32,000 nucleotides of DNA from assembly GCA_027925225.1 (NCBI GenBank), contig AP027131.1:420001-452000 (forward strand). Reading direction: 5' to 3'. Below, in pieces: positions 1 to 25,406 of the stretch (the stretch's first letter is position 1; every line of letters begins with the position of its first letter). Under the pieces are notes generated by a model. That model ran no database searches, had not been told where the DNA came from, and saw nothing but the letters and a program-made list of their open reading frames with translations. The position numbers and the translations under genes are program-made. The stretch is from Candidatus Saccharimonadota bacterium (GTDB lineage Bacteria > Bacillota_I > Bacilli_A > Mycoplasmatales > Hepatoplasmataceae).

Positions 1-2084
1 TAATACATGAAAATGAAAATCATGATTTTTATGAAAATTTAATAAGTAATGATAGTTTTATTAAAATTGGAATAGGCGATAGACCAAATGGTTCAAATAA
101 TATTGGAGTTGCTGATTATGAATTTCCATGTATCAATATGCCAACAGAAGAAGAATTAGATTTAAATTCTATTTATGAATATATTTTTGAAATAAATATA
201 GAATTTTTCAAAGATGACCAATATTGATTATATAAAATTGAAGACAATATTCTTTCAATAGATAATTATTATGATGAACCACTTAATAATATTAGATTTT
301 ATGATGATTTAAAAATAACTAATAATGATTTTAAACAAAATACTTTTAATCCTTATATTGTTGGAAAAAATGGATTTAAAATTATAAAAACAACAGAAAA
401 TTCAGTTCAATTTCAAATTAAAGCAATAAATGATTATGAAGAAAGTTATGATTTCGAAAACAGTTCTTTTAACGTGACTTTAAATAATATTGATAATGAT
501 TTTATAATTAATACTAAAGCTAATTATATAGGTATTGGAGAAGAAGATAATACATATGTTTATGAAATAAATGGTTTAACTTCTGATACAAATTATGAAA
601 TTCTTTCTTTAGATAACACAAATCTCTCTGTTCTTAATCCTTGCTATGAAAATGATTCTTCAATTTCAATTAATGATACATATGAAAACGGTGGTTTAAA
701 TTCAGATGGTCATTTTAAAACAATTCGAGAAGAGAAATCTTACATAGAAGAAAAGGGATTTGAAATTTTAGATACAACATCAAATTCTGTAAAATTTCAA
801 ATAACTGTAATAGAGGATGAAGAAAATAGTTTTGATCCTTCTATTTCTTTAAATGTAACAATAAATGATTCCTTAGGAAATTCAATAAATAAAACAGCAA
901 ATTATATCGAAGAAGAAAGCTCTGGAAATAATTATGTTTATGAAATAACAGGCCTTGAAGAAGGAACAAATTACGAAATTATTTCTCTAAATGATACAGG
1001 ACTTGCTGTTGGAAGCGGTTTAAATGAAATTGATAATGAAATTTTAATAAGCGATGATTTGGGCGCTGATGGAAGTTTTAATACTTTAAATGATGATCCT
1101 TACATTGAAGAAAAAGGATTTGAAATTTTAGATACAACATCAAATTCTGTAAAATTTCAAATAACTGTAATAGAGGATGAAGAAAATAGTTTTGATCCTT
1201 CTATTTCTTTAAATGTAACAATAAATGATTCCTTAGGAAATTCAATAAATAAAACAGCAAATTATATCGAAGAAGAAAGCTCTGGAAATAATTATGTTTA
1301 TGAAATAACAGACCTTGAAGAGGGAACAAGTTATGAAATTATTTCTCTAAATGATACAGGACTTGCTGTTGGAAGCGGTTTAAATGAAATTGATAATGAA
1401 ATTTTAATAAATGATGATCTGGAAGCAGAAGGAAATTTTGTAACATCGAATACTAACCCGTATATTGAAACTGGTGCTAATAGTGGCTTTGAAATTATAA
1501 ATTATACAGAAACAACTGTAACTTATACAATTAATGTTTATAATAAAAAACCAAATGAAAATATTGATGTTACATTAACATTAAATGAAAATAATTTAGC
1601 ATCCCCTAAAATTAACAATAATTTAACAGAAACAAAAACATATTCATCACATCTTGTAGATTCTGATGAGGAAAATAATAAATATACATATAAAGTTACA
1701 AATTTAAATGATAATACTGATTATACTTTTTATTCTTTAGATAACAGCGGACTTGCAATTGGAAGTAGTTCTGAAGAAATTGATGATCAAATAATACTTA
1801 CTGATGAATTATTCGTTAATCCAAATTTATTATTTTTTAAAACATATGAAAGCAAAATTCCAAATTATGTTTGAATAATTTTAATAATTTTTCTAATTAT
1901 AATTATTTTTATAGGTATTTTATTAGTTCTAAAAATAATAAACAAAAATAAAGAAAAAAAAATAGATAGAGAAATTAATAATTTAGCAGGAGAAAGAATT
2001 AATAAAAAAGTGCAAAAAAATAAAACTTCTTCAAGGAAAAAACAAATTAGTAAAAAATCTGTATCAAAACAAAAAAATAATTAA
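1..2084 (+). CDS. Modular repeat surface protein with C-terminal membrane anchor (5' end lies outside the window); distant member of the family arrayed at 11.4-24.7 kb
   Basis: Frame 3 is open from base 3. Track ORF 474..1874 ends at TGA 1872-1874, which reads through as Trp to TAA 2082-2084. The translation shows at least 4 consecutive ~120-aa modules (NPYI-E-x-GFEI ... NVT ... Y-x-YEI-x-L-x-x-x-T-x-Y-x-I/F-x-SL). It then reads ...FFKTYESKIPNYVW, a hydrophobic helix IILIIFLIIIIFIGILLVLKII, and a Lys-rich tail. Confidence 0.8.
741..1460 (+). repeat. Two tandem 360-bp (120-codon) units inside the surface-protein CDS
   Basis: Unit 1 (741-1100) and unit 2 (1101-1460) both begin tacat(a/t)gaagaaaa(g/a)ggatttgaaattttagatacaacatc. 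By eye there are only ~6 substitutions in the first ~310 bp. The last ~50 bp diverge. Confidence 0.9.
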
Positions 2085-2149: not shown

Positions 2150-3789
<1,640 letters not shown>

Positions 3790-3802
<13 letters not shown>

Positions 3803-5553
3803 CAATAAAATTTGGCCAAAGCGAACATAAAAGAGTTAATTATTTAAATTTTTATTTTGCAGCAGCTTTGTCTTTTCAAAATTTAATAGGAATCAAAATA
3901 AATAATATAGAAAAAATAAATAAAGAATTTTTAAAAAATGAAGTTTACGAAATAGAAAAGAAGGAAACAAATATAAAAAGAGAATTAACTTTTTTTAAAA
4001 ATGGTTTTCCTTTATATTTCGAAAACAAAAATAAGGAAATCGAAGTTACAAATCTTACAAAAAAAATATTAGAAAATGGAGATAAAAAAATATTTAATGG
4101 AAGAACATATTTGGAAAATGTTTTAATTCTTTATTTAATAAAAAAATATCCAGAAAATGAAATTATTAACAATCCCTTTTTTTGTGCTTTAAATTTTGCA
4201 GAAGAAGAAAAATACACAAAAAAGGAATTTATAGATAAAATTTTTAAATTAAATAAAGAGAAAATACAAAATTATTTAGAACAGATTTCGTTAGATGATT
4301 ATATTAATATCTATTTTAAATTTAAATCAGGAAATCCAGAATCTAAAAAAGATTTAGAAATAAAAAAATTTCAAAATAAAAAAAATGAATTAATAGAAGA
4401 ATTAGCAAGAAATGTTTTATCTAAAAAAAATAATCAAGAAATAGTTTTAAATAAACTTTACATTCTTATAAATGAATATATGAAACTTAGAGATTTAAAA
4501 AAAATAAGTATTTTCCCAAAAACATTTAAAAAAATTTTTCAATTAAAAGATAGTGATTTATATAAATTTATTTTAGATTATGAAAAAAAAGATAAACAAA
4601 AATATTTTGATTTAATAAAAAATATGAATTTTAATTATTTAATAGAAAATTTTTATTTTGAAAATAAAAAAGGCGATTATGGAAATTTAATTTGAAAATA
4701 TCTCATTAATACAAACTTTTTTTTAATTAAAGAAGATAAAATTTCTATAAATCCAAAATGTGAAGAATATATAAATGATTTAAAAAATAATTATTATGAA
4801 ATTTTAAAAATAAAACTTGACGATAAAAACATAATAGAAAAATTTAAAAATTTAAATATAAAAAATAAAGATAACAATGATATTTCTGTTAGAGAAATAA
4901 TAAATGAATATTATAATGAAAATTTTTATAATAATTTTTTTGAAATTATTTCACTCGAAGATGAAAAAATAATTAACAAAAAATTAATAAAACTTGGTAA
5001 TGAAAATCAACATATAAATGGAATCTTAGATGCTCCTACAATTTTTGAATTTATAATAAATTTATTTTTTTTCAAATTATTTTATAAAGAAGAAATTTTA
5101 AATATAAATAAAATTTCAGATGAAGAATTAACAAATAATTTCAAAGAAAGTATTAATACTTATTTAACATCAAATTTAATTCCTCAAAGATTTGCAAGCG
5201 GAGGAAGGTCAGATGCAATTTTTAAAAATCAAGAAATTCTAATAGAACCAACTTTACAAATAAAAAGGCAAGTAAAACATGAATTAAATTCAATAACAGA
5301 TCACTTAAAAAAAGTAGGTTATCATTACTCTGTTTTGGTCGCTCCTAAAATTTCAAATGATTTTTTACCACAAGTCATATCTTATAAAGATTATGATTAT
5401 TCTTGAATAATATTACCTTTTAATACAAATATTTTGATTAAAATAAAAGAATCAGATTATTCTACAGATTTATTTAATGAAATAAAAAATGATTTTAAAA
5501 ATTGCAATACATATAAAGAAGTAAGTAATATATTTAAAAAATATAATAATTAA
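3790..5553 (+). CDS. Putative restriction endonuclease partner of the fused MTase (Type IIS-like, possibly AlwI/MlyI/PleI-type)
   Basis: A 587-codon frame-1 ORF, checked codon by codon from 4681 to TAA 5551-5553. TGA codons at 4693 and 5404 are read as Trp. ATG 3790 overlaps the MTase 3' end by 13 nt. The C-terminal region carries FASGGRSDAIFKNQEILIEPTLQIKRQVKHELNSITDHL, a PD-(D/E)xK-like D...E-x-T-L...Q...E pattern. The family assignment is from memory of RE_AlwI-type enzymes and was not searched. Confidence 0.6.
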
Positions 5554-5632
5554 TTAATTATATTTGTTTTAATTTAATTTAATTTGTGATGTAATTAACT
5601 TATATAAAATAATTAAATTAAGGATATACAAA

Positions 5633-7456
5633 ATGAATAATGATAATAGTGTAGAAAGAAGAACATTAAGTTCATTTTTTACAAATGGTAATATTTACAA
5701 AGTTCCTAGCTATCAAAGAAAATATGTATGAGATGAAAATAATACAGAAAAATTATTTAAAGATTTTGAAAATTTAGTTATGAGCGAAAATTCTAGTGAA
5801 ACACTTTATTTAGGAAATATACTTATTAAAAGTGATGAAAATGAAGATAAATGATTAATTGATGGGCAACAAAGAATAACAACTTTACTTTTATTTTTTA
5901 AAGCATTATATGATGATTATTTTAAAAGAGCATACAAGGAAAATAATCATGATAAGGAAATTGAGGAGGAACTTGAAAATTATATTTATCTAAAAGAAGA
6001 TGCCGATAAAAATATAAGACTTAAAATTAAGGATCTTATAAATGAAGAAAAATTTAAATTAATATTTGAAAAAAAAATTAATATTAATACAATTCCAAAT
6101 AAAAAAATAAAAAATTTAAGTCAATTTCATAAAAATTATTTTACTTTTAGAAAATTAATTGATAATTTTTTTAATAAAAATATTGAATTTGATACATATT
6201 CATTTTTAAAAATTTTTAAAAAAATATGAATAATTAAAATTAAATTAATGAAAAATGATGATGAATTAAAAATTTTTGAAACCTTAAATTCTAGAGGAAC
6301 AATATTACAAGCGGTTGATTTAATAAAAAATTTTTATTTCATTTATACCGATAAAATAAAAAACAATGATGAAAATTTAAATAAAAAAACGAATTATAAA
6401 ATAAAACTTTTTTTTGAAAAAATTCTTCCAGAAACAATTTCTTGAAAAGGCGAAAAAACAAAAGAATTTATAAAATTAATAAAAGAATATATTATTTTTA
6501 AATCTTTAATAAGTGAAAATAATTATAATTTTTCATTACCTAAGGAAAAAGATCCACAAGATTTATATGATAAATTTAAGGAAATTGCAGAAAAAGAATT
6601 TAATTATTTAAAAACAAATAAAGATATTGAAAAATCTATTAATGATTTACATAAATTTCTTTTAATGAAAAAAAATTTAAAAAAATATGAAAATATTAAT
6701 AAAAAATATAATTTTGAAAACTTTGAAATTTCACTTATGATATTTAATAAATTATTTACAGGGTCTCAGTTTTTCCCTATAATTGCACAACTAATGTATA
6801 AAGATAATTTATCTATAGAAGATTTAGAATACTTTAATATTAAAAATATAAATGAAGATTTTAAGAAAGCTGTTTTATATATTGAAAAACTAATTGTAAA
6901 AAGAGAATCTGTACAAAAAGGTACTAGATTAATTACAAGAAACGTAAATAAAATAAAAATAAGATCTTATAATGATATAAAAGAAAAATTTAAGGATTTA
7001 TTACCAAATAACAATGATTTTATTGAAGGTTTAAATTTTAATAATATTTATGAAACAATTCCTAGCGATATTTTAAAAGGAATTCTTTGAAGAATAGAAT
7101 TAAATAAATACGATAAAAAAAGCAATGAAAATATTAATTATCATAATGATAAAGATAAATTTACAATTGAGCATATTTTGCCGCAAAAAATTGAGGATAG
7201 TGTTGAATGAAAAAAAGATTTAGGCGATGATTGAAACTCAATTCATGAAAAATATAAAAATTCATTAGGAAATTTAACAATAACTGGAGAAAACAGTGAA
7301 ATGTCAAATAATCCTTTTAGTATAAAAAAAGCACATTTTTCAAATAGCATCATTAAAATGAATAGAGAAATTTCAAAATTAGAAAAATGAAATAAAGATG
7401 AAATTTTAAACAGAAGAAAAGAATTAATAGATATTTGCTTAGAAATTTGAAATTAA
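5633..7456 (+). CDS. GmrSD-family Type IV (modification-dependent) restriction enzyme, DUF262 + DUF1524
   Basis: Frame-2 ORF from ATG 5633 (aaggat lies 8 nt upstream) to TAA 7454-7456. It joins track pieces 6248..6445 and 6665..7090 through TGA=Trp. N-terminal motifs are YKVPSYQRKYVW, LIDGQQRITTL and IFETLNSRGTILQAVDLIKN (DUF262). C-terminal motifs are FTIEHILPQK ... LGNLTITGENSEMSN (DUF1524 His-Me nuclease). Confidence 0.85.
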
Positions 7457-9636: not shown

Positions 9637-11373
9637 ATGAAAATAATTAAAGGAATAAGTATATCTTCTGGTTTTTCCATTGGTAAATCTTTTTTATTAA
9701 AAGAAGAAAATATAAAAATAAAAGAAGAAAATACAAGAGATAGTAAAAATGAAATAAAAAAATTAAATAATGCAATTAAAGAAGCAAATTCACAGATTAT
9801 AAAAATTAAAAAAAATGTTGAAAAAAAACTTAATGAAGAAGAAGCAAAAATTTTTGATGCACACTTAGAAATTTTAAATGACCCTGAGCTTTTTGAAAAA
9901 ACAAAAGAAATAATTATAAATAATAATAAAAGTGCAAGTTTTGCTTTTAAAAAAGCAAGTGATGAAATTAAAAAAATTTTTGAAACAATAGATAATGAAT
10001 ATATGAGAGAAAGAGTTCTTGATATAACCGATGTTTCAAATCGTTTAATAAAAATATTAGAAGGAATTGAAATAAGAGATCTTTCTCTTATAAGTGAAGA
10101 AACAATAATTATAGCCCGCGATTTAACGCCTTCTGAAATTTCACAATTAGATTCTAGATTTGTAAAAGGTTTTGTCACAGAAATTGGAGGAACCACTTCA
10201 CATTCAGCAATTATTGCTCGAACTTTAGGAATTCCGGCAATTTCTGGAATTGGAAAAAATATCAATTTAATAAAAAATAATGAAAAAGTACTATTAAATG
10301 CAAAAGATGGAATTTTAATTTTAGATCCCCAGAAGGAAGAAATTGAAAATTTTGAAGCAAAAAAAAATAAATATGAAGAAATAAAAAAAGAAGAAGATAA
10401 ATTTATAAATATAAGTCCCACTACAAAAGATAATTGAAAAACAAAAATAGCTGTAAATATTGGAAATTTAGAAGATTTAAACAATTATAAAAAATTAAAT
10501 ATTGATGGTGTTGGTTTATTTCGTACAGAATTTTTATATATGAACTCAGATAAATGACCAACAGAAGAAGAACAATTTAATGTATATAAAAAAATCCTTG
10601 AAACAGTAAATATAAATAATGAAACAGTTGTTATTAGAACATTAGATATTGGAGGAGATAAAAAATTAAAATATTTTAATTTTCCAAAAGAAGAAAATCC
10701 TTTTTTAGGTTATCGTGCTATAAGATTAAGCTTAGACAAAAAGGATATTTTTATTACACAAATTCGTGCATTATTGCGTGCATCAAAATTTGGAAATCTT
10801 GCAATTAATCTTCCAATGATTGCAACAATCGATGAATTAAAAGAAGTCAAAAAAATAATAAAAAATACTGAAAATGAATTAATTAAAGAAGGACAAAAAA
10901 TAAATAAATATCAGATTGGTATGATGGTAGAAGTACCGTCAGTTGTTGAGCTTGCTGACAAATTTATAAAATATGTAGATTTTTTTTCAATTGGAACAAA
11001 TGATTTAATTCAATATACTTTTGCAGTAGATAGATTATCAGAAAAAGTTGCTTATTTATATCAACCTTTAAATCCTACAATTTTAAGAATGATTTATAAG
11101 ATAATCAAAACTTCTCATGAAAATAATAAGTGAACTGCAATTTGTGGTGAACTTGCAAGAGAAACAAAACTGATACCTATATTTATTGCTATGGGATTAG
11201 ATGAATTTTCTATGTCTGCTTCGTTTATCTTGAAAATACGTAGAATTTTTTCAAAAATTAGCAAAAAGGAAAGCGAAAAAATATTAGAACAAATTTTAGA
11301 TTCCGAAACAGAAAAAGAAGTAAGCAATTTAATTGATAAATTTTTTAAAGAAAATAATATTTCTTATTATTAA
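9637..11373 (+). CDS. ptsI: PTS Enzyme I (phosphoenolpyruvate-protein phosphotransferase)
   Basis: A frame-1 ORF of 578 aa that joins 9637..10437, 10774..11133 and 11191..11373 through TGA=Trp. It has the active-site His region [18 protein letters not shown], the PEP-binding region GTNDLIQY, and the catalytic Cys in [12 protein letters not shown]. Confidence 0.95.
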
Positions 11374-11397: not shown

Positions 11398-11806
11398 ATG
11401 TTTTGTATAAAATTAAAAAAATTTTCTATTTTTTTTCTTTTTTAAGAAGTGTTGGGAATCTTTATTTTAAAAATAAAGATTCTTTTAATTATCAAAATAA
11501 TCCTGAAGGTAATATATATATATATATATAAATCAAAATTTATTGAAAAAAATGGTAATGAATACACTTATGAAATAAAAGGATTAAATGATGAGACAAG
11601 TTATACATTTTATTCACTAGAAAATACAAAACTTTCAATAAACGATAGAACAAATCCAATTGATGAAGAAATAATATTAGAAGAAAATTTAGGAATTGAT
11701 TCATCCTTTTATTATTGGTATCTTTATTCTTATAAGAATTTTAAATAGAAATAAAAGAGAAAAAAGAATTTAATGAATTATTAAACGAAGATATAAAATC
11801 TAAATA
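11398..11806 (+). pseudogene. Decayed, internally deleted remnant of the arrayed surface-protein family
   Basis: ATG 11398 opens a signal-peptide-like frame that stops after 15 codons at T-rich tracts. The family N-terminus (GNLYFKNKDSFNY) sits in another frame, abutting a (TA)9 tract. That tract joins directly to the last family module (KSKFIEKNGNEYTYEIKGLNDETSYTFYSLENTKLSIN...). A further out-of-frame deletion removes the FLIFKTEKTKIP..TM segment. The family 3' end ...gaagatataaaatctaaataa is retained at 11786-11806. Confidence 0.65.
11512..11530 (+). repeat. (AT)9A dinucleotide tract at the deletion junction of the remnant copy
   Basis: Direct read: gaaggtaatatatatatatatatataaatcaaa. The homologous site in intact copies reads gaaggtaatacatataaatcaaa (e.g. 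15185-15207). Confidence 0.9.
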
Positions 11807-11880
11807 AATTCTTAATCTTATTAAAGATACAAAAAACAATAATTATAACAAAAAAATAAAAAATATTATATAATTTATTT

Positions 11881-13680
11881 ATGATAAGATTAAAGAATTT
11901 ATATTTTTTGTTTTCTTTTTTTATAATTTTTACTTTTTTTTGAGGTAGCGGTAATCTTTATTTTAAAAATAAAGATTCTTTTAATTATGAAAATAATTCT
12001 TCTTTACAAGATGTTAATGATTTAAATAATCCTTATATTGAAAAAAATGGTTTTGAAATAAACAGCTGAGAGGCAGAAACTTCCTCTGTAATTTTTACTT
12101 TAACTATTGTAGGTGATTGAATAGTTAAACCTATAAATGTTTCACTTTATAATGATGAAGAATTAATTTCTGTAACCGCAAACAATATAAGCTCTCATGT
12201 TATTGATACAGATAATAATGAAGTAGAATATGGATATAGAATACAAGGATTAGATATTGCCAATAGCAATGAATACACTTTTTATTCTTTAGATAATACA
12301 AATTTAGCAATAGAAGATAATGGCGATTCTATTGATGATCAAATTTTGCTTAGCGAAGAATTGAATGTTACAAATGAACTTACATTTAGTTTAAGTACTA
12401 CTAATAATGCTTATACTAGTGATAATAATAGTAGTGGTAAAGGAGAAGTAGGAATATTTAGAACTTCTAATAAAGATGTTGTTTTTAGCATTTTAATATC
12501 AGACAATTGAGCTGTTCAAGACAGTTTACGTCTTATTTTGCGGCGTAATTTAAATGGAGTTGTTTCTAAGTTTAATGTTAATGCTAATTTATTATATGAA
12601 GAAGATTTAGAGGGTGAATTTACTAGATTTTATTATGTTATTACTGATAATACTAGTCATATAGTAGCAGGCACAAGTTATAAATTTTTTGTTGATACAA
12701 TTTATGCATCAGCTTGTCTAGCATTAGGAGAATCTACTAATGTAGTAAAAGATATTGCAGTTGACAATAATTCTTTTTCCTTTGAAAATCCTTACATAGT
12801 GGAAAATAGCTTTGAAATTTTAAATGATTCAACTGATTATTCAATAAAATTTCAAATAGGTTTAATAAATAATCAACATAAAGATTTTGACACTTCTTCA
12901 CCATTAAATGTGACACTAAAAGATATAGAAGGAAATAATTATTCAACAACTGCAAATTATGTAAGCGTGGGTTCAGAAAGTAATACTTATATTTATGAAA
13001 TAACAGAACTTGAAAATAATAAACCTTTAAATATTAGCACTAATTATTCTATTTTTTCAATAGATAATGAATGACTTGCTGTTGGAAGTAATATAAATGA
13101 TATTGATAATGAAATTTTAATAGAAGATGATTTGGGCGCAGAAGGGAATTTTACAACTGCTAATGCTTATATTATAGAAAATGGTTTTAAAATTGTTGAA
13201 TATAATGATACATCTGTAAAATATGCAATAACTGTAGAAGGGTGAGAAAATGATTATAAAAATTATGAAAATGAAATTGATGTAAGATTAATTTCTGAAG
13301 ATAATTCCGAAGGTGAAATATATCAATCAAAATTTATTGAAAAAAATGGTAATGAATACACTTATGAAATAACAGGATTAAATGAGGAGACAAGTTATAC
13401 ATTTTATTCACTAGAAAATACAAAACTTTCAATAAATGATAAAGCAACGCCAATCGATGAAGAAATAATCTTAGAAGAAGATTTAGGAATTTATTCATCC
13501 TTCTTAATATTTAAAACAGAGAAAACAAAAATCCCAAGTTATGTTTGAATAATATTAGCAATAATAATTATGTTAATAATTATTATTGGTATCTTTATTC
13601 TTATAAGAATTTTAAATAGAAATAAAAGAGAGAGAGAAGAGTTTAATGAATTATTAAACGAAGATATAAAATCTAAATAA
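11881..13680 (+). CDS. Arrayed surface protein, copy A (intact, 599 aa): signal peptide, 4 modules, C-terminal TM anchor
   Basis: Frame 1 from ATG 11881 to TAA 13678-13680, with only TGA (Trp) internal stops. N-terminus MIRLKNLYFLFSFFIIFTFFWGSG has no Cys lipobox. C-terminus is ...FKTEKTKIPSYVW-IILAIIIMLIIIIGIFILIRIL-NRNKREREEFNELLNEDIKSK. It contains track ORF 12538..13074. Confidence 0.85.
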
Positions 13681-13753
13681 CTTCTTAATCTTATTAAAGA
13701 TACAAAAAATGATCATTATAACAAAAAAATAAAAAATATTATATAATTTATTT

Positions 13754-15555
13754 GTGATAAGATTAAAAAATTTATATTTTTTGTTTTCTTTTTTTATAAT
13801 TTTTACTTTTTTTTGAGGTGGCAATAATCTTTATTTTAAAAATAAAGATTCTTTTAATTATGAAAATAATTCTTCTTTACAAGATGTTAATGATTTAAAT
13901 AATCCTTATATTGAAAAAAATGGTTTTGAAATAAACAGCTGAGAGGCAGAAACTTACTCTGTAATTTTTACTTTAACTATTGTAGGTGATTGAACAATTG
14001 AACCTATAAATGTTTCACTTTATAATGATGAAGAATTAATTTCTGTAACTGCAAGCAATATAAGCTCTCATGTTATTGATACAGATAATAATGAAGTAGA
14101 ATATGGATATAGAATAGAAGGATTAGATATTACTAATAGCAATGAATACACTTTTTATTCTTTAGATAATACAAATTTAGCAATAGAAGATAATGGTGAT
14201 GCTATTGATGATCAAATTTTGCTTAGCGAAGAATTGAATGTTACAAATGAACTTACATTTAGTTTAAGCACTACTAATAATGCTTATATTAGTGATAATG
14301 GTAATGGTCAAGCAGAAATAGAAATATTAAGAACTTCTCTAGTCAATATGTTGTTTTTAGTCTTTTAATATCAGACAACTGAGCTGTTCAAGATAAATTA
14401 TATCTTCATATAAGTCGCGTTAAGTCTCAAACTTCCTCTGCTTTTAGTATATACAGTTATTTTTTATTTGAGGAAGATTTAGAGGGCGAATTTAATAAAT
14501 TTTATTATTTTATTGATGCTAATGATGCTAGTGCAATGGTTGCAGGTAAAAGTTATACTTATCATTTTAAAGAAATTTATTCAATTTCTTACTTAGCATT
14601 AGAATCTAATAGAGCAATAAAAACTATTCCAATAGGAGGTAATAGTTTTTATTTTGAAAGTCCTTACATAGTAGAAAATAATTTTGAAATTTTAAATGAT
14701 TTAACTGATTATTCAATAAAATTTCAAATAAGTGTAGTAAATAATGATTCTGGAGATTTTGATCCTTCTTCACCATTAAATGTGACACTAAAAGATATAG
14801 AAGGAAATAATTATTCAACAACTGCAAATTATGTAAGTGCGGGTTCAGAAAGTAATACTTATATTTATGAAATAACAGAACTTGAAAATAATAAACCTTT
14901 AAATGTTAGCACTAATTATTCTATTTTTTCAATAGATAATGAATGACTTGCTGTTGGAAGTAATATAAATCCAATTGATTTAGAAATCTTAATTACTGAT
15001 CAATTAAATGGTGATGGAAATTTTAAAACTGCTAATGCTTATATTTTAGAAGAAGGTTTTAAAATTGTTGAATATAATGATACATCTGTAAAATATACAA
15101 TAACTGTAGAAGGATGAGAAAATGATTATAAAAATTATGAAGAAAATGAAATTTATGCAAAATTAATTTCTGAAGATAATGCTGAAGGTAATACATATAA
15201 ATCAAAGTTTATTGAAAAAAATGGTAATGAATACACTTATGAAATAACAGGATTAAATGATGAGACAAGTTATACATTTTATTCACTAGAAAATACAAAT
15301 CTTTCAATAAATGATAAAGCAGCACCAGTTGATGAAGAAATAATATTAACAGAAGATTTAGGAATTGATTCATCCTTCTTAATATTTAAAACAGAGAAAA
15401 CCAAAATTCCAAATTATGTTTGAATAATATTAGCAATAATAATTATGTTGATAATTATTATTGGTATCTTTATTCTTATAAGAATTTTAAACAGAAATAA
15501 AAGAGAAAGAGAAGAGTTTAATGAATTATTAAACGAAGATATAAAATCTAAATAA
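13754..15555 (+). pseudogene. Arrayed surface protein, copy B, disrupted by a net +2 frameshift near 14339-14347
   Basis: GTG 13754 (frame 2) reads normally until acttct|ctagtcaatatgttg, where other copies have acttct|aataaagatgttg. It then stops at TAA 14366-14368. The homologous reading continues in frame 1 (open from 14305; first ATG 14536 = track ORF 14536..14946) to TAA 15553-15555. The footprint is 1802 nt against 1800 in intact copies. Confidence 0.75.
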
Positions 15556-15576
15556 AGAATGTTATATAATTTATTT

Positions 15577-17376
15577 ATGATAAGATTAAAAAATTTATAT
15601 TTTTTGTTTTCTTTTTTTATAATTTTTACTTTTTTTTGAGGTAGCAGTAATCTTTATTTTAAAAATAAAGATTCTTTTAATTATGAAAATAATTCTTCTT
15701 TACAAGATGTTAATGATTTAAATAATCCTTATATTGAAAAAAATGGTTTTGAAATAAAAAGTTGAGAAGCAGAAACTTCCTCTGTAATTTTTACTTTAAC
15801 TATTGTAGGTGATTGAATAGTTAAACCTATAAATGTTTCACTTTATAATGATGAAGAATTAATTTCTGTAACTGCAAGCAATATAAGCTCTCATGTTATT
15901 GATACAGACAATAATGAAGTAGAATATGGATATAGAATACAAGGATTAGATATTACTAATAGCAATGAATACACTTTTTATTCTTTAGATAATACAAATT
16001 TAGCAATAGAAGATAATGGTGATTCTATTGATGATCAAATTTTACTTAGCGAAGAATTGAATGTTACAAATGAACTTACATTTGATTTAAGTACTACTAA
16101 TAATGCTTATACCAGTGATAGTGCTAATAACGGTCAAGGAGAAGTAAAAATATTAATAACTTCTAATAAAAATGTTGTTTTTAGCATTTTAATATCAGAC
16201 AACTGAGCCGTTCAAGACAAATTATATATTAATATTCAGCGTAATTGAACTGGAAGTGTTCTTAGGTTTAATGTTTATGCTAATTTATTATATGAAGAAG
16301 ATTTAGAGGGTGAATTTACTAATTTTTATTATGTTATTACTGATAATAATAATAATATAGTACCAGGTACATATTATAGTTATAAGGTTCATTATGTTTA
16401 TTCGCCAGCTTATCTAGCATTAAGAGAATCTAGTAATGTAGTAAAAGATATTGTAATAGACACTAATACTTTTTACTTTGAAAGTCCTTACATAGTGGAA
16501 AATAGCTTTGAAATTTTAAATGATTCAACTGATTATTCAATAAAATTTCAAATAGGTTTAATAAATAATCGCCATAAAGATTTTGATCCTTCTAAATCCT
16601 TAAATGTAACATTAAAAGATATAGAAGGAAATAATTATTCAACAACTGCAAATTATGTAAGTGCGGGTTCAGAAAGTAATACTTATATTTATGAAATAAC
16701 AGAACTTGAAAATAATAAACCTTTAAATGTTAGCACTAATTATTCTATTTTTTCAATAGATAATGAATGACTTGCTGTTGGAAGTAATATAAATGATATT
16801 GATAATGAAATTTTATTAGAAGATGATTTGGGAGCAGAAGGTAGTTTTACAACTGCTAATGCTTATATTTTAGAAGAAGGTTTTAAAATTATTGAGTATA
16901 ATGATACATCTGTAAAATATACAATAACTGTAGAAGGATGAGAAAATGATTATAAAAATTATGAAAATGAAATTGATGTAAGATTGATTTCTGAAGATAA
17001 TTCTGAAGGTGATATATATCAATCAAAATTTATTGAAAAAAATGGTAATGAATACACTTATGAAATAACAGGATTAAACGATGAGACAAGTTATACATTT
17101 TATTCACTAGAAAATACAAAACTTTCAATAAATGATAAAGCAACGCCAATTGATGAAGAAATAATATTAACAGAAGATTTAGGAATTGATTCATCTTTCT
17201 TAATATTTAAAACAGAGAAAACCAAAATTCCAAATTATGTTTGAATAATATTAGCAATAATAATTATGTTAATAATTATTATTGGCATAATTATTCTTAT
17301 AAGAATTTTAAATAGAAATAAAAGAGAAAAAAGAGAGTTTAATGAATTATTAAACGAAGATATAAAATCTAAATAA
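15577..17376 (+). CDS. Arrayed surface protein, copy C (intact, 599 aa)
   Basis: Frame 1 from ATG 15577 to TAA 17374-17376. It includes track ORFs 16495..16770 and 16984..17244, joined by TGA=Trp. The architecture matches copy A, with a unique central cassette. Confidence 0.85.
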
Positions 17377-17450
17377 CTTCTTAATTTTATTAAAGATATA
17401 GAAAAACAATAATTATAACAAAATAATAAAAAATATTATATAATTTAGTT

Positions 17451-19226
17451 ATGATAAGATTAAAAAATTTATATTTTTTGTTTTCTTTTTTTATAATTTT
17501 TACTTTTTTTTGAGGTAGCAGTAATCTTTATTTTAAAAATAAAGATTCTTTTAATTATGAAAATAATTCTTCTTTACAAGATGTTAATGATTTAAATAAT
17601 CCTTATATTGAAAAAAATGGTTTTGAAATAAACAGCTGAGAGGCAGAAACTTACTCTGTAATTTTTACTTTAACTATTGTAGGTGATTGAACAGTTGAAC
17701 CTATAAATGTTTCACTTTATAATGATGAAGAATTAATTTCTGTAACTGCAAGCAATATAAGCTCTCATGTTATTGATACAGATAATAATGAAGTAGAATA
17801 TGGATATAGAATAGAAGGATTAGATATTACTAATAGCAATGAATACACTTTTTATTCTTTAGATAATACAAATTTAGCAATAGAAGATAATGATGATGTT
17901 ATTGATGATCAAATTTTACTTAGCGAAGAATTGAATGTTACAAATGAACTTACATTTGATTTAAGCACTACTAATAATGCTTATACTAGTGATAATAATA
18001 GTAGCGGCAAAGGAGAAATAGAAGTATTAAGGACTTCTAATAAAGATGTTGTTTTTAGTGTTTTAATATCAGACAATTGAGCTGTTCAAGACAGTTTATA
18101 TCTTCATATTGAGCGTCATTGAAGTGGAAGTGTTTCTAGATTTAGTGTTTATGCTAATTTATTATATGAAGAAGATATAGGGGGTGAATTTACTAAATTT
18201 TATTATGTTATTCATGATACTTCTGGAGCAATAGAACCAGGTACATATTATAATTATAGAATTGAGTATATTTATTCAACAGCTCATCTAGCATTAGGAG
18301 GATCTACTAATGTAGCACAAAATATTACAATAGACACTAATATTTTTTACTATAACAGTCCTTATATAGTAAATAATAGTTTTGAAATTTTAAATGATTC
18401 AACTGATTATTCAATAGAATTTCAAATAGGTTTAATAAATAATAGCCATGCAGATTTTGACGCTTCTTCACCATTAAATGTGACACTAAAAGATATAGAA
18501 GGAAATAATTATTCAACAACTGCAAATTATGTAAGCACGGGTTCAGAAAGTAATACTTATATTTATGAAATAACAGAACTTGAAAATAATAAACCTTTAA
18601 ATGTTAGCACTAATTATTCTATTTTTTCAATAGATAATGAATGACTTGCTGTTGGAAGTAATATAAATGATATTGATAATGAAATTTTAATAGAAGATGA
18701 TTTGGGCGCAGAAGGGAATTTTACAACTGCTAATGCTTATATTATAGAAAATGGTTTTAAAATTGTTGAATATAATGATACATCTGTAAAATATGCAATA
18801 ACTGTAGAAGGGTGAGAAAATGATTATAAAAATTATGAAAATGAAATTGATGTAAGATTAATTTCTGAAGATAATTCCGAAGGTGATATATATCAATCAA
18901 AATTTATTGAAAAAAATGGTAATGAATACACTTATGAAATAACAGGATTAAACGATGAGACAAGTTATACATTTTATTCACTAGAAAATACAAAACTTTC
19001 AATAAATGATAAAGCAACGCCAATTGATGAAGAAATAATATTAACAGAAGATTTAGGAATTGATTCATCCTTCTTAATATTTAAAACAGAGAAAACCAAA
19101 ATTCCAAGTTATGTTTGAATAATATTAGCAATAATAATTATGTTAATAATTATTATTGGCATAATTATTCTTATAAGAATTTTAAATAGAAATAAAAGAG
19201 AAAAAGAGAGTTTAATGAATTATTAA
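17451..19226 (+). CDS. Arrayed surface protein, copy D (591 aa; cytoplasmic tail altered by an A6->A5 frameshift)
   Basis: Frame 0 from ATG 17451. All modules and the TM helix are intact. The poly-A run is A5 at 19201-19205, against A6 in copies C, E, F and G. This shifts the tail to ...NRNKREKESLMNY, stopping at TAA 19224-19226 instead of the family stop at 19247-19249. Confidence 0.75.
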
Positions 19227-19270
19227 ACGAAGATATAAAATCTAAATAAAGGATATTATATAATTTATTT

Positions 19271-21070
19271 ATGGTAAAATTAAAAAATTTATATTTTTTG
19301 TTTTCTTTTTTTATAATTTTTACTTTTTTTTGAGGTAGCGGTAATCTTTATTTTAAAAATAAAGATTCTTTTAATTATGAAAATAATTCTTCTTTACAAG
19401 ATGTTAATGATTTAAATAATCCTTATATTGAAAAAAATGGTTTTGAAATAAACAGCTGAGAGGCAGAAACTTCCTCTGTAATTTTTACTTTAACTATTGT
19501 AGGTGATTGAATAGTTAAACCTATAAATGTTTCACTTTATAATGATGAAGAATTAATTTCTGTAACCGCAAACAATATAAGCTCTCATGTTATTGATACA
19601 GATAATAATGAAGTAGAATATGGATATAGAATACAAGGATTAGATATTGCCAATAGCAATGAATACACTTTTTATTCTTTAGATAATACAAATTTAGCAA
19701 TAGAAGATAATGGCGATTCTATTGATGATCAAATTTTGCTTAGCGAAGAATTGAATGTTACAAATGAACTTACATTTAGTTTAAGTACTACTAATAATGC
19801 TTATACTAGTGATAATAATAGTAGTGGTAAAGGAGAAGTAGGAATATTTAGAACTTCTAATAAAGATGTTGTTTTTAGCATTTTAATATCAGACAATTGA
19901 GCTGTTCAAGACAGTTTACGTCTTATTTTGCGGCGTAATTTAAATGGAGTTGTTTCTAAGTTTAATGTTAATGCTAATTTATTATATGAAGAAGATTTAG
20001 AGGGTGAATTTACTAGATTTTATTATGTTATTACTGATAATACTAGTCATATAGTAGCAGGCACAAGTTATAAATTTTTTGTTGATACAATTTATGCATC
20101 AGCTTGTCTAGCATTAGGAGAATCTACTAATGTAGTAAAAGATATTGCAGTTGACAATAATTCTTTTTCCTTTGAAAATCCTTACATAGTGGAAAATAGC
20201 TTTGAAATTTTAAATGATTCAACTGATTATTCAATAAAATTTCAAATAGGTTTAATAAATAATCAACATAAAGATTTTGACACTTCTTCACCATTAAATG
20301 TGACACTAAAAGATATAGAAGGAAATAATTATTCAACAACTGCAAATTATGTAAGCGTGGGTTCAGAAAGTAATACTTATATTTATGAAATAACAGAACT
20401 TGAAAATAATAAACCTTTAAATATTAGCACTAATTATTCTATTTTTTCAATAGATAATGAATGACTTGCTGTTGGAAGTAATATAAATGATATTGATAAT
20501 GAAATTTTAATAGAAGATGATTTGGGAGCAGAAGGGAATTTTACAACTGCTAATGCTTATATTTTAGAAGAAGGTTTTAAAATTGTTGAGTATAATGATA
20601 CATCTGTAAAATATACAATAACTGTAGAAGGATGAGAAAATGATTATAAAAATTATGAAAATGAAATTGATGTAAGATTAATTTCTGAAGATAATTCCGA
20701 AGGTGAAATATATCAATCAAAATTTATTGAAAAAAATGGTAATGAATACACTTATGAAATAACAGGATTAAATGAGGAGACAAGTTATACATTTTATTCA
20801 CTAGAAAATACAAAACTTTCAATAAATGATAAAGCAACGCCAATCGATGAAGAAATAATATTAACAGAAGATTTAGGAATTGATTCATCCTTCTTAATAT
20901 TTAAAACAGAGAAAACCAAAATTCCAAGTTATGTTTGAATAATATTAGCAATAATAATTATGTTAATAATTATTATTGGCATAATTATTCTTATAAGAAT
21001 TTTAAATAGAAATAAAAGAGAAAAAAGAGAGTTTAATGAATTATTAAACGAAGATATAAAATCTAAATAA
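19271..21070 (+). CDS. Arrayed surface protein, copy E (intact, 599 aa)
   Basis: Frame 2 from ATG 19271 to TAA 21068-21070. It contains track ORF 19928..20464, whose protein is identical to 12538..13074 of copy A. Confidence 0.85.
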
Positions 21071-21091
21071 AGGATATTATATAATTTATTT

Positions 21092-22895
21092 ATGGTAAAA
21101 TTAAAAAATTTATATTTTTTGTTTTCTTTTTTTATAATTTTTACTTTTTTTTGAGGTAGCGGTAATCTTTATTTTAAAAATAAAGATTCTTTTAATTATG
21201 AAAATAATTCTTCTTTACAAGATGTTAATGATTTAAATAATCCTTATATTGAAAAAAATGGTTTTGAAATAAACAGCTGAGAGGCAGAAACTTACTCTGT
21301 AATTTTTACTTTAACTATTGTAGGTGATTGAACAGTTGAACCTATAAATGTTTCACTTTATAATGATGAAGAATTAATTTCTGTAACCGCAAGCAATATA
21401 AGCTCTCATATTATTGATACAGATAATAATGAAGTAGAATATGGATATAGAATAGAAGGATTAGATATTACTAATAGCAATGAATACACTTTTTATTCTT
21501 TAGATAATACAAATTTAGCAATAGAAGATAATGGTGATGTTATTGATGATCAAATTTTACTTAGCGAAGAATTGAATGTTACAAATGAACTTACATTTGA
21601 TTTAAGTACTAATAATAATGCTTATACCAGCGATAATAATAGTAGCGGTAAAGGAGAAATAGGAATATTTAGAACTTCTAATAAAGATGTTGTTTTTAGT
21701 ATTTTGATATCAGACAACTGAGCCGTTCAAGACAATTTACATCTTATTTTGCGGCGTAATTTAAATGGAAATATTTTTACGTTTAGTGTTTATGTTAATT
21801 TATTATATGAAGAAGATTTAGAGGGTGAATTTACTAAATTTTATTATGTTATTAATGATGGTGATAGCAATTCAATAGAACCAGGTACAAATTATAAATT
21901 TTTTGTTGATACAATTTACTCATCAGCTTATCTAGCATTAGGAGAATCTACTAATGTAGTAAAATCTATTGCAATTGACAATAATTCTTTTTCCTTTGTG
22001 AGTCCTTACATAGTGGAAAATAGTTTTGAAATTTTAAATGATTCAACTGATTATTCAATAAAATTTCAAATAGGTTTAGTAAATGATCAAAATGGAGATT
22101 TTGATACTTCTTCACCATTAAATGTGACACTAAAAGATATAGAAGGAAATAATTATTCAACAACTGCAAATTATGTAAGCACGGGTTCAGAAAGTAATAC
22201 TTATATTTATGAAATAACAGAACTTGAAAATAATAAACCTTTAAATGTTAGCACTAATTATTCTATTTTTTCAATAGATAATGAATGACTTGCTGTTGGA
22301 AGTAATATAAATGATATTGATAATGAAATTTTAATAGAAGATGATTTGGGCGCAGAAGGGAATTTTACAACTGCTAATGCTTATATTATAGAAAATGGTT
22401 TTAAAATTGTTGAATATAATGATACATCTGTAAAATATGCAATAACTGTAGAAGGGTGAGAAAATGATTATAAAAATTATGAAAATGAAATTGATGTAAG
22501 ATTAATTTCTGAAGATAATTCCGAAGGTGATATATATCAATCAAAATTTATTGAAAAAAATGGTAATGAATACACTTATGAAATAACAGAGATTAAACGA
22601 TGAGACAAGTTATACATTTTATTCACTAGAAAATACAAAACTTTCAATAAATGATAAAGCAACGCCAATTGATGAAGAAATAATATTAACAGAAGATTTA
22701 GGAATTGATTCATCCTTCTTAATATTTAAAACAGAGAAAACCAAAATTCCAAGTTATGTTTGAATAATATTAGCAATAATAATTATGTTAATAATTATTA
22801 TTGGCATAATTATTCTTATAAGAATTTTAAATAGAAATAAAAGAGAAAAAAGAGAGTTTAATGAATTATTAAACGAAGATATAAAATCTAAATAA
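21092..22895 (+). pseudogene. Arrayed surface protein, copy F, +1 frameshift at ~22589; predicted product lacks the membrane anchor
   Basis: Frame 2 from ATG 21092 (contains track ORF 21749..22288). At 22586-22594 it reads acagagatt where all other copies read acaggatt. The frame then runs ...YEITEIKRWDKLYILFTRKYKTFNKW and stops at TAA 22655-22657. The homologous frame (0) continues to the family stop at 22893-22895. Confidence 0.75.
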
Positions 22896-22916
22896 AGAAT
22901 GTTATATAATTTATTT

Positions 22917-24716
22917 GTGATAAGATTAAAAAATTTATATTTTTTGTTTTCTTTTTTTATAATTTTTACTTTTTTTTGAGGTGGCAATAATCTTTATTTT
23001 AAAAATAAAGATTCTTTTAATTATGAAAATAATTCTTCTTTACAAGATGTTAATGATTTAAATAATCCTTATATTGAAAAAAATGGTTTTGAAATAAACA
23101 GCTGAGAGGCAGAAACTTACTCTGTAATTTTTACTTTAACTATTGTAGGTGATTGAACAGTTGAACCTATAAATGTTTCACTTTATAATGATGAAGAATT
23201 AATTTCTGTAACTGCAAGTCATATAAGCTCTCATATTATTGATACAGATAATAATGAAGTAGAACATGGATATAGAATAGAAGGATTAGATATTACTAAT
23301 AGCAATGAATACACTTTTTATTCCTTAAATAATACAAATTTAGCAATAGAAGATAATGGCGATGCTCTTGATGATCAAATTTTAATTAGTGAAGAATTGG
23401 ATGTTACAAATGAACTTACATTTGATTTAAGTACTACTAATAATGCTTATGCAAGCGATAATAATAGTAGTGGCAAAGGAGAAATAGTAGTATTTAGAAC
23501 TTCTAATAAAGATGTTGTTTTTAGTGTTTTAATATCAGACAATTGAACTGTTCAAGACAGTTTATATCTTCATATTCAGAAGAATTGACCTGGAACTTTT
23601 ACTAAGTTTAGTGTTAATGCTAATTTATTATATGAAGAAGATATAGGGGGTGAATTTACTAGATTTTATTATGTTATTCCTGATATTTATGGTGCAATAG
23701 AACCAGGTACATATTATAGTTATAGAATTGATTATATTTATTCAACGGCTCGTCTAGCATTAGGAGGACCTACTAATGTAGTAAAAAATATTACAATAGA
23801 CACTAATGTTTTTTACTTTGACAGTCCTTACATAGTGGAAAATAGTTTTGAAATTTTAAATGATTCAACTGATTATTCAATAAAATTTCAAATAGGTTTA
23901 ATAAATAATAGACATAAAGATTTTGATACTTCTTCACCATTAAATGTGACACTAAAAGATATAGAAGGAAATAATTATTCAACAACTGCAAATTATGTAA
24001 GCACGGGTTCAGAAAGTAATACTTATATTTATGAAATAACAGAACTTGAAAATAATAAACCTTTAAATGTTAGCACTAATTATTCTATTTTTTCAATAGA
24101 TAATGAATGACTTGCTGTTGGAAGTAATATAAATGATATTGATAATGAAATTTTAATAGAAGATGATTTGGGCGCAGAAGGGAATTTTACAACTGCTAAT
24201 GCTTATATTATAGAAAATGGTTTTAAAATTGTCGAATATAATGATACATCTGTAAAATATGCAATAACTGTAGAAGGGTGAGAAAATGATTATAAAAATT
24301 ATGAAAATGAAATTGATGTAAGATTAATTTCTGAAGATAATTCCGAAGGCGATATATATCAATCAAAATTTATTGAAAAAAATGGTAATGAATACACTTA
24401 TGAAATAACAGGATTAAACGATGAGACAAGTTATACATTTTATTCACTAGAAAATACAAAACTTTCAATAAATGATAAAGCAACGCCAATTGATGAAGAA
24501 ATAATATTAACAGAAGATTTAGGAATTGATTCATCCTTCTTAATATTTAAAACAGAGAAAACCAAAATTCCAAGTTATGTTTGAATAATATTAGCAATAA
24601 TAATTATGTTAATAATTATTATTGGCATAATTATTCTTATAAGAATTTTAAATAGAAATAAAAGAGAAAAAAGAGAGTTTAATGAATTATTAAATGAAGA
24701 TATAAAATCTAAATAA
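22917..24716 (+). CDS. Arrayed surface protein, copy G (intact, 599 aa, GTG start)
   Basis: Frame 0 from GTG 22917 to TAA 24714-24716. It contains track ORF 23835..24110. Only TGA codons interrupt it. Confidence 0.8.
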
Positions 24717-24878: not shown

Positions 24879-25406
24879 ATGAAAATTATGAAAAAAAAAG
24901 AAAAAGATATTCTTGTTTACTCACCAGCAGATGGGAAAATTGTAGATATTAAAAAAGTTCCTGATGAAACTTTTTCACAAGAAATGATAGGAAAGGGTAT
25001 TGCAATAAAAATAAATTCTCCTTATATTTATTCACCAATAAAAGGAAAAGTAGAAGCCGCTTTTAGAACAGGTCATGCTTATGGTATTAAAACTAAATAT
25101 GGACCTTCAATACTATTACATATAGGCGTTGATACTGTCGCTTTAAATGGCGAAGGTTTTCTAAGGTTAATCATGCAAGGAGAAAAAGTAAAACCAAAAA
25201 GTAAATTAGCAAGAGTTAATTGAGAAATACTCAAAAAAGCAAAATCTTCAGAAACATTAGTAATTGCAACTAATGATTCAATGGAGGGCTACGAAATAGA
25301 AATGGTTGCTAAAATTGGCCAAAAAGTAACAAAAGATGATGTTCTCTTCAAAATAATAGAAAAAAAAGAAAAAGATAAAAAAGAGGAAAAAAAAGATGGA
25401 AATTAA
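24879..25406 (+). CDS. crr: PTS glucose-family EIIA component
   Basis: Frame 0 from ATG 24879 (alternative ATG 24888) through TGA 25221 (Trp) to TAA 25404-25406. EIIA-Glc motifs: VPDETFSQEMIGKGIAI, the two-His site FRTGHAYGI and LLHIGVDTVALNGEGF. Confidence 0.88.

Follow-up and report, generated by a model that had tools for sequence, protein, structure and literature searches.

The window analysed here, a stretch of 32,000 nt (positions 420001-452000 of its source genome), comes from a woodlouse-gut mycoplasma whose genome of 662,108 bp is assembled as a single closed contig with 22.7% G+C. The window itself has a G+C content of 22.4%, and its long genes are readable only when TGA is translated as tryptophan. 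It contains a tandem array of paralogous genes, in the following referred to as units A-G (Table 1). All of these units are in direct orientation on the plus strand, with a period of 1.82-1.87 kb, and their arms, i.e. the segments on either side of a hypervariable central cassette, are 93-99% identical between copies. Units A, C, E and G are intact and encode proteins of 599-605 aa, and the remaining units carry frameshifts: D has lost its tail by an A6 to A5 frameshift (19190-19230) but is otherwise full, F has a +1 frameshift in an AG context (~22590-22600), and B has a +2 frameshift (TC; 14333-14368). All three sites lie in simple-sequence contexts. These frameshifts could be sequencing errors, given that this is probably a nanopore-based metagenome-assembled genome (MAG), or else real or phase-variable lesions.

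The array is accompanied by a remnant copy, which supplies the upstream homology for unit A. Together, the 13-kb array and this remnant are bracketed by ptsI (window 9637-11373) and crr (24879-25406). Three other genomes of the genus have crr immediately behind ptsI, at a distance of 65-110 nt, so that the array represents a lineage-specific insertion or expansion. Upstream of it (2150-7456), the window encodes a fused N4/N6 and Dam-type DNA methyltransferase, a 587-aa protein and a GmrSD-type (DUF262/DUF1524) restriction protein. A second tandem-repeat region lies outside the window, at genome positions 372861-377055, with periods of ~618 and 312 nt and 97-98% identity.

Table 1. Coordinates of the array, its units A and E, and the segments shared between them
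Feature	Position in window	Strand	Description
Tandem array	11881-24716	+	Seven ~1.8-kb paralogous genes A-G, head-to-tail, TGA=Trp
Decayed remnant copy	11398-11806	+	At 5' edge of array; only the 5' and 3' ends of the family
Unit A	11881-13680	+	599-aa gene; Cys-less hydrophobic N-terminus, four predicted β-sandwich domains, C-terminal TM helix
Unit E	19271-21070	+	599-aa gene; 23 nt and 10 aa differences from A
Hypervariable cassette of A	12376-12885	+	Codons ~166-335; roughly the second β-sandwich domain
Exact block, copy in A	11896-13136	+	1241 nt, codons 6-419
Exact block, copy in E	19286-20526	+	1241 nt
Full A-E shared tract in A	11896-13469	+	Columns 16-1598, ~1574 nt; 7 clustered differences from E
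Full A-E shared tract in E	19286-20859	+	Identical to A but for 7 sites
Nested patch	13137-13242	+	Columns 1262-1367, all 7 internal A/E differences; A has D/F/G alleles, E has C-type alleles (mostly also in B)
Stretch of A identical to D and F	13034-13316	+	283 nt, exactly as D 18604-18886 and F 22248-22530; maximal extent of the putative second conversion

Starts and upstream spacers vary among the units. Each of the seven retains a start codon, ATG or GTG, preceded by a TATAAT box at a distance of 6 nt. Unit A has a long upstream spacer of the 73-nt type and starts with MIRLK; unit E has a short spacer of 21 nt and starts with MVKLK, exactly as F does. A -35-like ATAACA motif is found 18 nt upstream of TATAAT only in the long-spacer units A, B and D (11845-11874, 13718-13747 and 17415-17444), while the short-spacer units C, E, F and G have TATAAT alone. 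Promoter-like matches, with 162 observed against 130 ± 12 in shuffled sequence, are barely above background in such AT-rich DNA. A terminator scan found no intrinsic terminators anywhere in the array, and an Rfam scan of the window returned no match.

The array proteins have a hydrophobic N-terminus and a C-terminal transmembrane helix, and are predicted to be membrane-anchored surface proteins with four β-sandwich domains. Within the N-terminal ~45 residues, no copy has a cysteine, and hence none has a lipobox cysteine. An AF2 model consists of four all-β domains, with a mean pLDDT of 66.7 that falls below 50 in the hypervariable domain. Searched with Foldseek, the protein matches tandem FN3/Ig-like and adhesin repeats with E-values of 1e-8 to 1e-6 and TM-scores of just 0.1-0.3, i.e. 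at the fold level only, and in the ESM Atlas it yields matches at chance level only (0.77). Pfam and NCBIfam profiles assign it to no family.

Beyond this genome, the family is narrowly distributed. No counterpart of the array was found in 30 related genomes, three of which belong to the same genus, and scans of genome and metagenome contigs were likewise empty. With a profile, only 21 proteins were retrieved from 1.84 billion representatives, and most of these are this genome's own paralogues or proteins of 26-70% identity whose matches fall on its other paralogue loci. Four of the 21 have no tblastn match in this genome; P0017 shares 40% identity with one unit of the array. The more distant paralogues (32-48% identity) are located at window positions 138-2084 and at 384.7-390.4, 417.6-419.4, 347.5-348.8 and 462.6-464.8 kb of the genome, and some of them have orthologues of 64-70% identity in the Logan assembly of a sibling organism (P0007, P0010, P0014 and P0015).

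Within the array, the hypervariable cassette and the arms appear to evolve in different ways. Pooled pN/pS is 1.28 in the cassette (0.8-2.0 in pairwise comparisons) but only 0.53 in one arm and 0.27 in the other, whereas synonymous divergence is alike in all three segments. Judged by these ratios, the arms look homogenised and constrained and the cassette diversified, and we infer that the cassettes are held diverse by selection as the arms become homogenised.

Against this background, units A and E stand out. It had originally been predicted from inspection of the sequence that they share a long, perfectly identical block despite being non-adjacent, and a letter-for-letter comparison at an offset of 7390 bears this out: 1241 of 1241 positions match, and mismatches at 11895/19285 and 13137/20527 delimit the block on either side. 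No other exact repeat in the 662-kb genome is as long; the runner-up, of 575 nt, lies in the second tandem-repeat region mentioned above. As had also been noted, the first 15 nt of the two units differ (atgataagattaaag in A versus atggtaaaattaaaa in E, with three mismatched sites), three units (B, C and D) separate A from E, and the block takes in the hypervariable cassette (columns ~501-1000), in which other pairs of units differ at 42-128 of 500 columns. Divergence among the other copies in this region is 10-25%.

We aligned the seven units with MAFFT, obtaining 1809 columns, 311 of which are variable. A and E differ in just 23 columns, three of them in columns 1-15 and the other 20 in columns 1262-1766. 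A recombination test of the GENECONV type, which the original prediction had proposed as a check, identifies the A-E block as an unbroken run of 250 variable columns, out of the 311, in which the two units agree (global p <= 0.0003); across 3000 shuffles of the variable columns, the largest run for any pair was 123. Likewise, the contrast between 0 differences in 1241 columns of the block and 20 in the 548 columns of the 3' rest is highly significant (Fisher p = 4e-11). On the level of codons, other pairs have pS values of 0.01-0.15 in all three segments, while the A/E block is devoid of synonymous differences over 414 codons. Chance identity of the block is excluded.

The shared ancestry of A and E does not end with the exact block. 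The original prediction had the two sequences diverging again at tttggg(c/a)gca, and this is indeed where the first 3' mismatch lies; it does not, however, mark a simple renewed divergence, as only seven differences follow, succeeded by 231 identical columns. Real divergence starts at column 1599 (13470/20860), beyond which A has private or B-like alleles and E alleles of the consensus type. Up to that point, several alleles are common to A and E and absent elsewhere, save in B at some sites (columns 1445, 1512, 1515 and 1584, and also 1158, just before the patch described below), so that the common ancestry of the two units outlasts the exact block. The full tract thus corresponds to codons 6 to ~530, which is nearly the whole ectodomain. 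At the protein level, A and E are distinguished by 10 of 599 residues, only five of which lie in the predicted ectodomain.

The seven differences within this tract are confined to a small patch. Under random placement, seven changes would fall inside 106 of 1583 nt with a probability of ~6e-7, and each allele that A carries there is found in other units. On these site patterns, we regard the seven differences as the product of a second, nested conversion and not as new mutations, and such an event explains the discontinuous tract better than patch repair of a heteroduplex. Since exact donors are extant for the patch of A, namely D and F, and none for that of E, the simplest history has D or F probably converting A once the main event had taken place. 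Other pairs share tracts beyond chance as well: D and F have 486 identical columns with 57 variable sites (columns 1018-1503), F and G have 315 with 40, and D and G have 304 with 38, at global p-values of 0 to 0.005 when A is left out. Several of these tracts begin at columns 1007-1018, just 3' of the cassette. Among them, the A-E event is unusual in that the cassette was carried along.

How, then, did A and E come to share this tract? The original prediction of a recent gene conversion or segmental transfer, as opposed to a simple tandem duplication, is upheld by the position of the breakpoints, as both boundaries of the tract fall within the unit and the flanks are unshared. Unequal crossing-over or reintegration of an excised circle would bring along the spacer and neighbouring sequence. 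Here, the neighbours have not been co-duplicated, B and F being 89% and C and G 93% identical. A multi-unit duplication by unequal crossing-over is ruled out by the dissimilarity of these pairs and by the differing spacers. Because the ends are internal to the unit, the spacers differ and the neighbours are not duplicated, a single double-ended, non-reciprocal transfer is the explanation that requires the fewest steps. We therefore consider it quite probable that A and E were joined by a recent gene conversion of the RecA type, in an array that evolves in concert.

Phylogenetic trees contribute less to this argument. The 548 columns of the 3' part give an unresolved star tree, for which the AU test does not reject a clade of A and E (p = 0.197). 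For this reason, the case for conversion rests on the divergence contrast and the mosaic site patterns, and not on a conflict between trees. For the direction of transfer, the neighbour of E provides an indication: F groups as the sister of the A/E block (support 100/98) and does not differ from E in the 5' flank (columns 1-202) or at the far 3' end. On this basis, E would more likely be the original location and A the copy that was overwritten, so that we somewhat favour a transfer from E to A over the reverse, a polarity read from the units of this array.

A duplicative origin must nonetheless be weighed. Here, A or E would be a new copy of the other, produced by unequal crossing-over or by excision and reintegration of a circle, and the present block would be what remained after neighbouring units had overwritten both ends by conversion. 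Rearrangements of this type have been proposed for clusters of tandem paralogues (Tsuru and Kobayashi, 2008; PMC2568036), the array has evidently gained and lost units, as seen from the remnant copy and the two spacer classes, and the AU result given above is compatible with A and E being sisters in the 3' part also. However, this history calls for extra events, namely a non-adjacent placement over three unrelated units and then two flank conversions, and it leaves no duplicated spacer or neighbour behind. The same data are covered by one double-ended conversion, and non-reciprocal homologous transfer would be needed in either case. We consider a duplicative origin improbable. It is more improbable by far that selection or convergence on the protein has kept A and E identical with no transfer of DNA: while the block codes for most of the ectodomain, nothing specific speaks in favour of this explanation, the identity of synonymous sites as well in effect refutes it, and the pN/pS of ~1.3 in the cassette of the other units is the opposite of conservation.

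A different concern, raised by the original prediction as well, is the assembly, as the identity of A and E and the structure of the array are known from a single one. It is probably the MAG 'Ca. Hepatoplasma vulgare Av-JP', perhaps in another version of the record, with which its G+C content and CheckM values (89.95/0.53 here) agree (Kawato et al., 2024; PMC10928387). That MAG was assembled with Flye from ~15x ONT data, with 38x Illumina coverage, polished with Medaka and POLCA, and patched manually elsewhere (PMC10928387). It is conceivable that A and E truly differ and were equalised by assembly, by polishing or by a population consensus, or that the structure or the haplotypes of the array were wrongly joined. 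The low coverage and the 42 structural variants reported from Illumina data, whose positions the supplement does not give (PMC10928387), lend some substance to this concern, as do the changes that disrupt D (A6 to A5) and F (+1, AG context), which are of the kind that nanopore errors yield. Yet polishing would be unable to equalise a cassette that differs by 10-25% among the other copies, and fine differences have been kept right beside the block, with three sites in 15 nt at its 5' edge and seven sites in 106 nt at its 3' edge. All seven of the latter match alleles of other units, as expected of a real mosaic and not of a collapse, and the distinct flanks of each copy would anchor reads of more than 5 kb. 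An artefact of this kind thus seems unlikely to us, if marginally less so than a duplicative origin, and we attach the same low probability to the assembly hiding a few single-base differences, a wrong order of units or mixed haplotypes of the array.

If A and E were joined by gene conversion, the genome should encode the means for it. RecA is present with 368 bits, over the curated cut-off (genome 209860-210642), and so is RecU (56 bits, over the cut-off). In searches of the whole genome with Pfam profiles, RuvA was not found, and for RuvB there were weak AAA+ matches only; likewise, Pfam profiles detected neither MutS (MutS_V) nor MutL in the closed 662-kb genome. Site-specific recombination, as in the inversions of vsa, vsp or vpma, is ruled out, since all units are direct and the Pfam profile Phage_integrase (PF00589) found no tyrosine recombinase in the whole genome.

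We infer the following pathway for the A-E transfer. A break or gap would arise in the recipient unit, followed by RecA-mediated invasion of a non-allelic unit, on the same or the sister chromosome, through the conserved 5' and 3' arms. Repair synthesis would then copy the divergent cassette lying between these arms, so that ~1.57 kb would be transferred from one unit into the other with the copy number unchanged. Without mismatch repair, homeologous exchange between arms of 90-98% identity would be easy. A later and smaller conversion of at least 106 and at most 283 nt, most simply from D or F into A, would have brought back the seven differences.

Gene conversion is a well-known evolutionary route of tandem surface-protein families, and the A-E transfer would add a new example and no new mechanism. 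Its interest lies in the tract recording, cleanly and in a datable form, that concerted evolution is under way in a symbiont genome of very small size (662 kb): nearly a whole ectodomain would have been copied between non-adjacent paralogues and then re-patched, with no point mutation since. This points to homologous recombination being active in this uncultured lineage, and to a surface-protein family that is both homogenised, in its arms, and diversified, in its cassette. In practical terms, A and E effectively represent one antigenic or adhesive type twice, so that the real repertoire is smaller than seven, and the locus marks a spot in a published metagenome assembly that merits long-read scrutiny.

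One may go further and regard the array as a diversity system at work in a gut symbiont of an invertebrate, in which several leaderless genes, under diversifying selection, offer differing hypervariable β-sandwich domains, and in which RecA-mediated transfer of cassettes, unchecked by mismatch repair, re-assorts them and amplifies favoured ones. The cassette of E may then have ended up in A, which heads the array and whose long spacer carries the fuller promoter-like element. We consider this rather doubtful, albeit less so than the artefact and duplication scenarios above. If true, the system would resemble antigenic variation without a single expression site, in a host without adaptive immunity. 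Its importance would rise only if population data revealed active switching of cassettes.

Several known systems invite comparison. The vsa, vsp and vpma loci of mycoplasmas vary lipoproteins by site-specific inversion. They resemble the array in being clusters of variable surface-protein genes in a mollicute, but here the units are direct, no tyrosine recombinase was found by the profile search, the proteins lack a lipobox cysteine, and the recombination would be homologous and not site-specific. The mycoplasmas with MgPar and vlhA sequences live in hosts that have adaptive immunity, which the woodlouse lacks. In these systems, i.e. mgpB/mgpC-MgPar of M. genitalium (PMC2169797) and vlhA with its pseudogene reservoir in M. 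synoviae (PMC2825196), variation arises by segmental gene conversion. As in our case, small-genome mollicutes transfer segments of variable surface proteins non-reciprocally and presumably with the help of RecA. However, MgPa/MgPar and vlhA have one expression site and truncated, promoterless donors, while the present array has at least four full-length units, and all seven have a start and a TATAAT box. It is therefore somewhat like these systems in its working, yet not a member of the silent-cassette class.

For the Hepatoplasmataceae, Kawato et al. (2024; PMC10928387) described large repetitive β-sandwich ORFs, three to four giant ones per genome, and proposed a role in host adhesion. These come from the same family and probably from the same genome, and they share with the array its restriction to the lineage, its tandem clustering and the β-sandwich architecture; their account makes no mention of gene conversion or of an array of seven genes for 600-aa proteins.

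Among described systems, the one most similar in form is the lipoprotein-like lpl cluster of S. aureus (Tsuru and Kobayashi, 2008; PMC2568036). That cluster encodes lipoprotein-like proteins and was studied by comparison of multiple strains, while the proteins considered here are non-lipoproteins from one genome, and its units are conserved in the centre and variable at the ends, where ours have conserved arms and a variable centre. Despite this inverted layout, both consist of surface-protein paralogues arranged head-to-tail, in which conserved segments recombine and variable ones are shuffled, and in lpl, too, two identical units within one array have been read as apparent gene conversion (PMC2568036).
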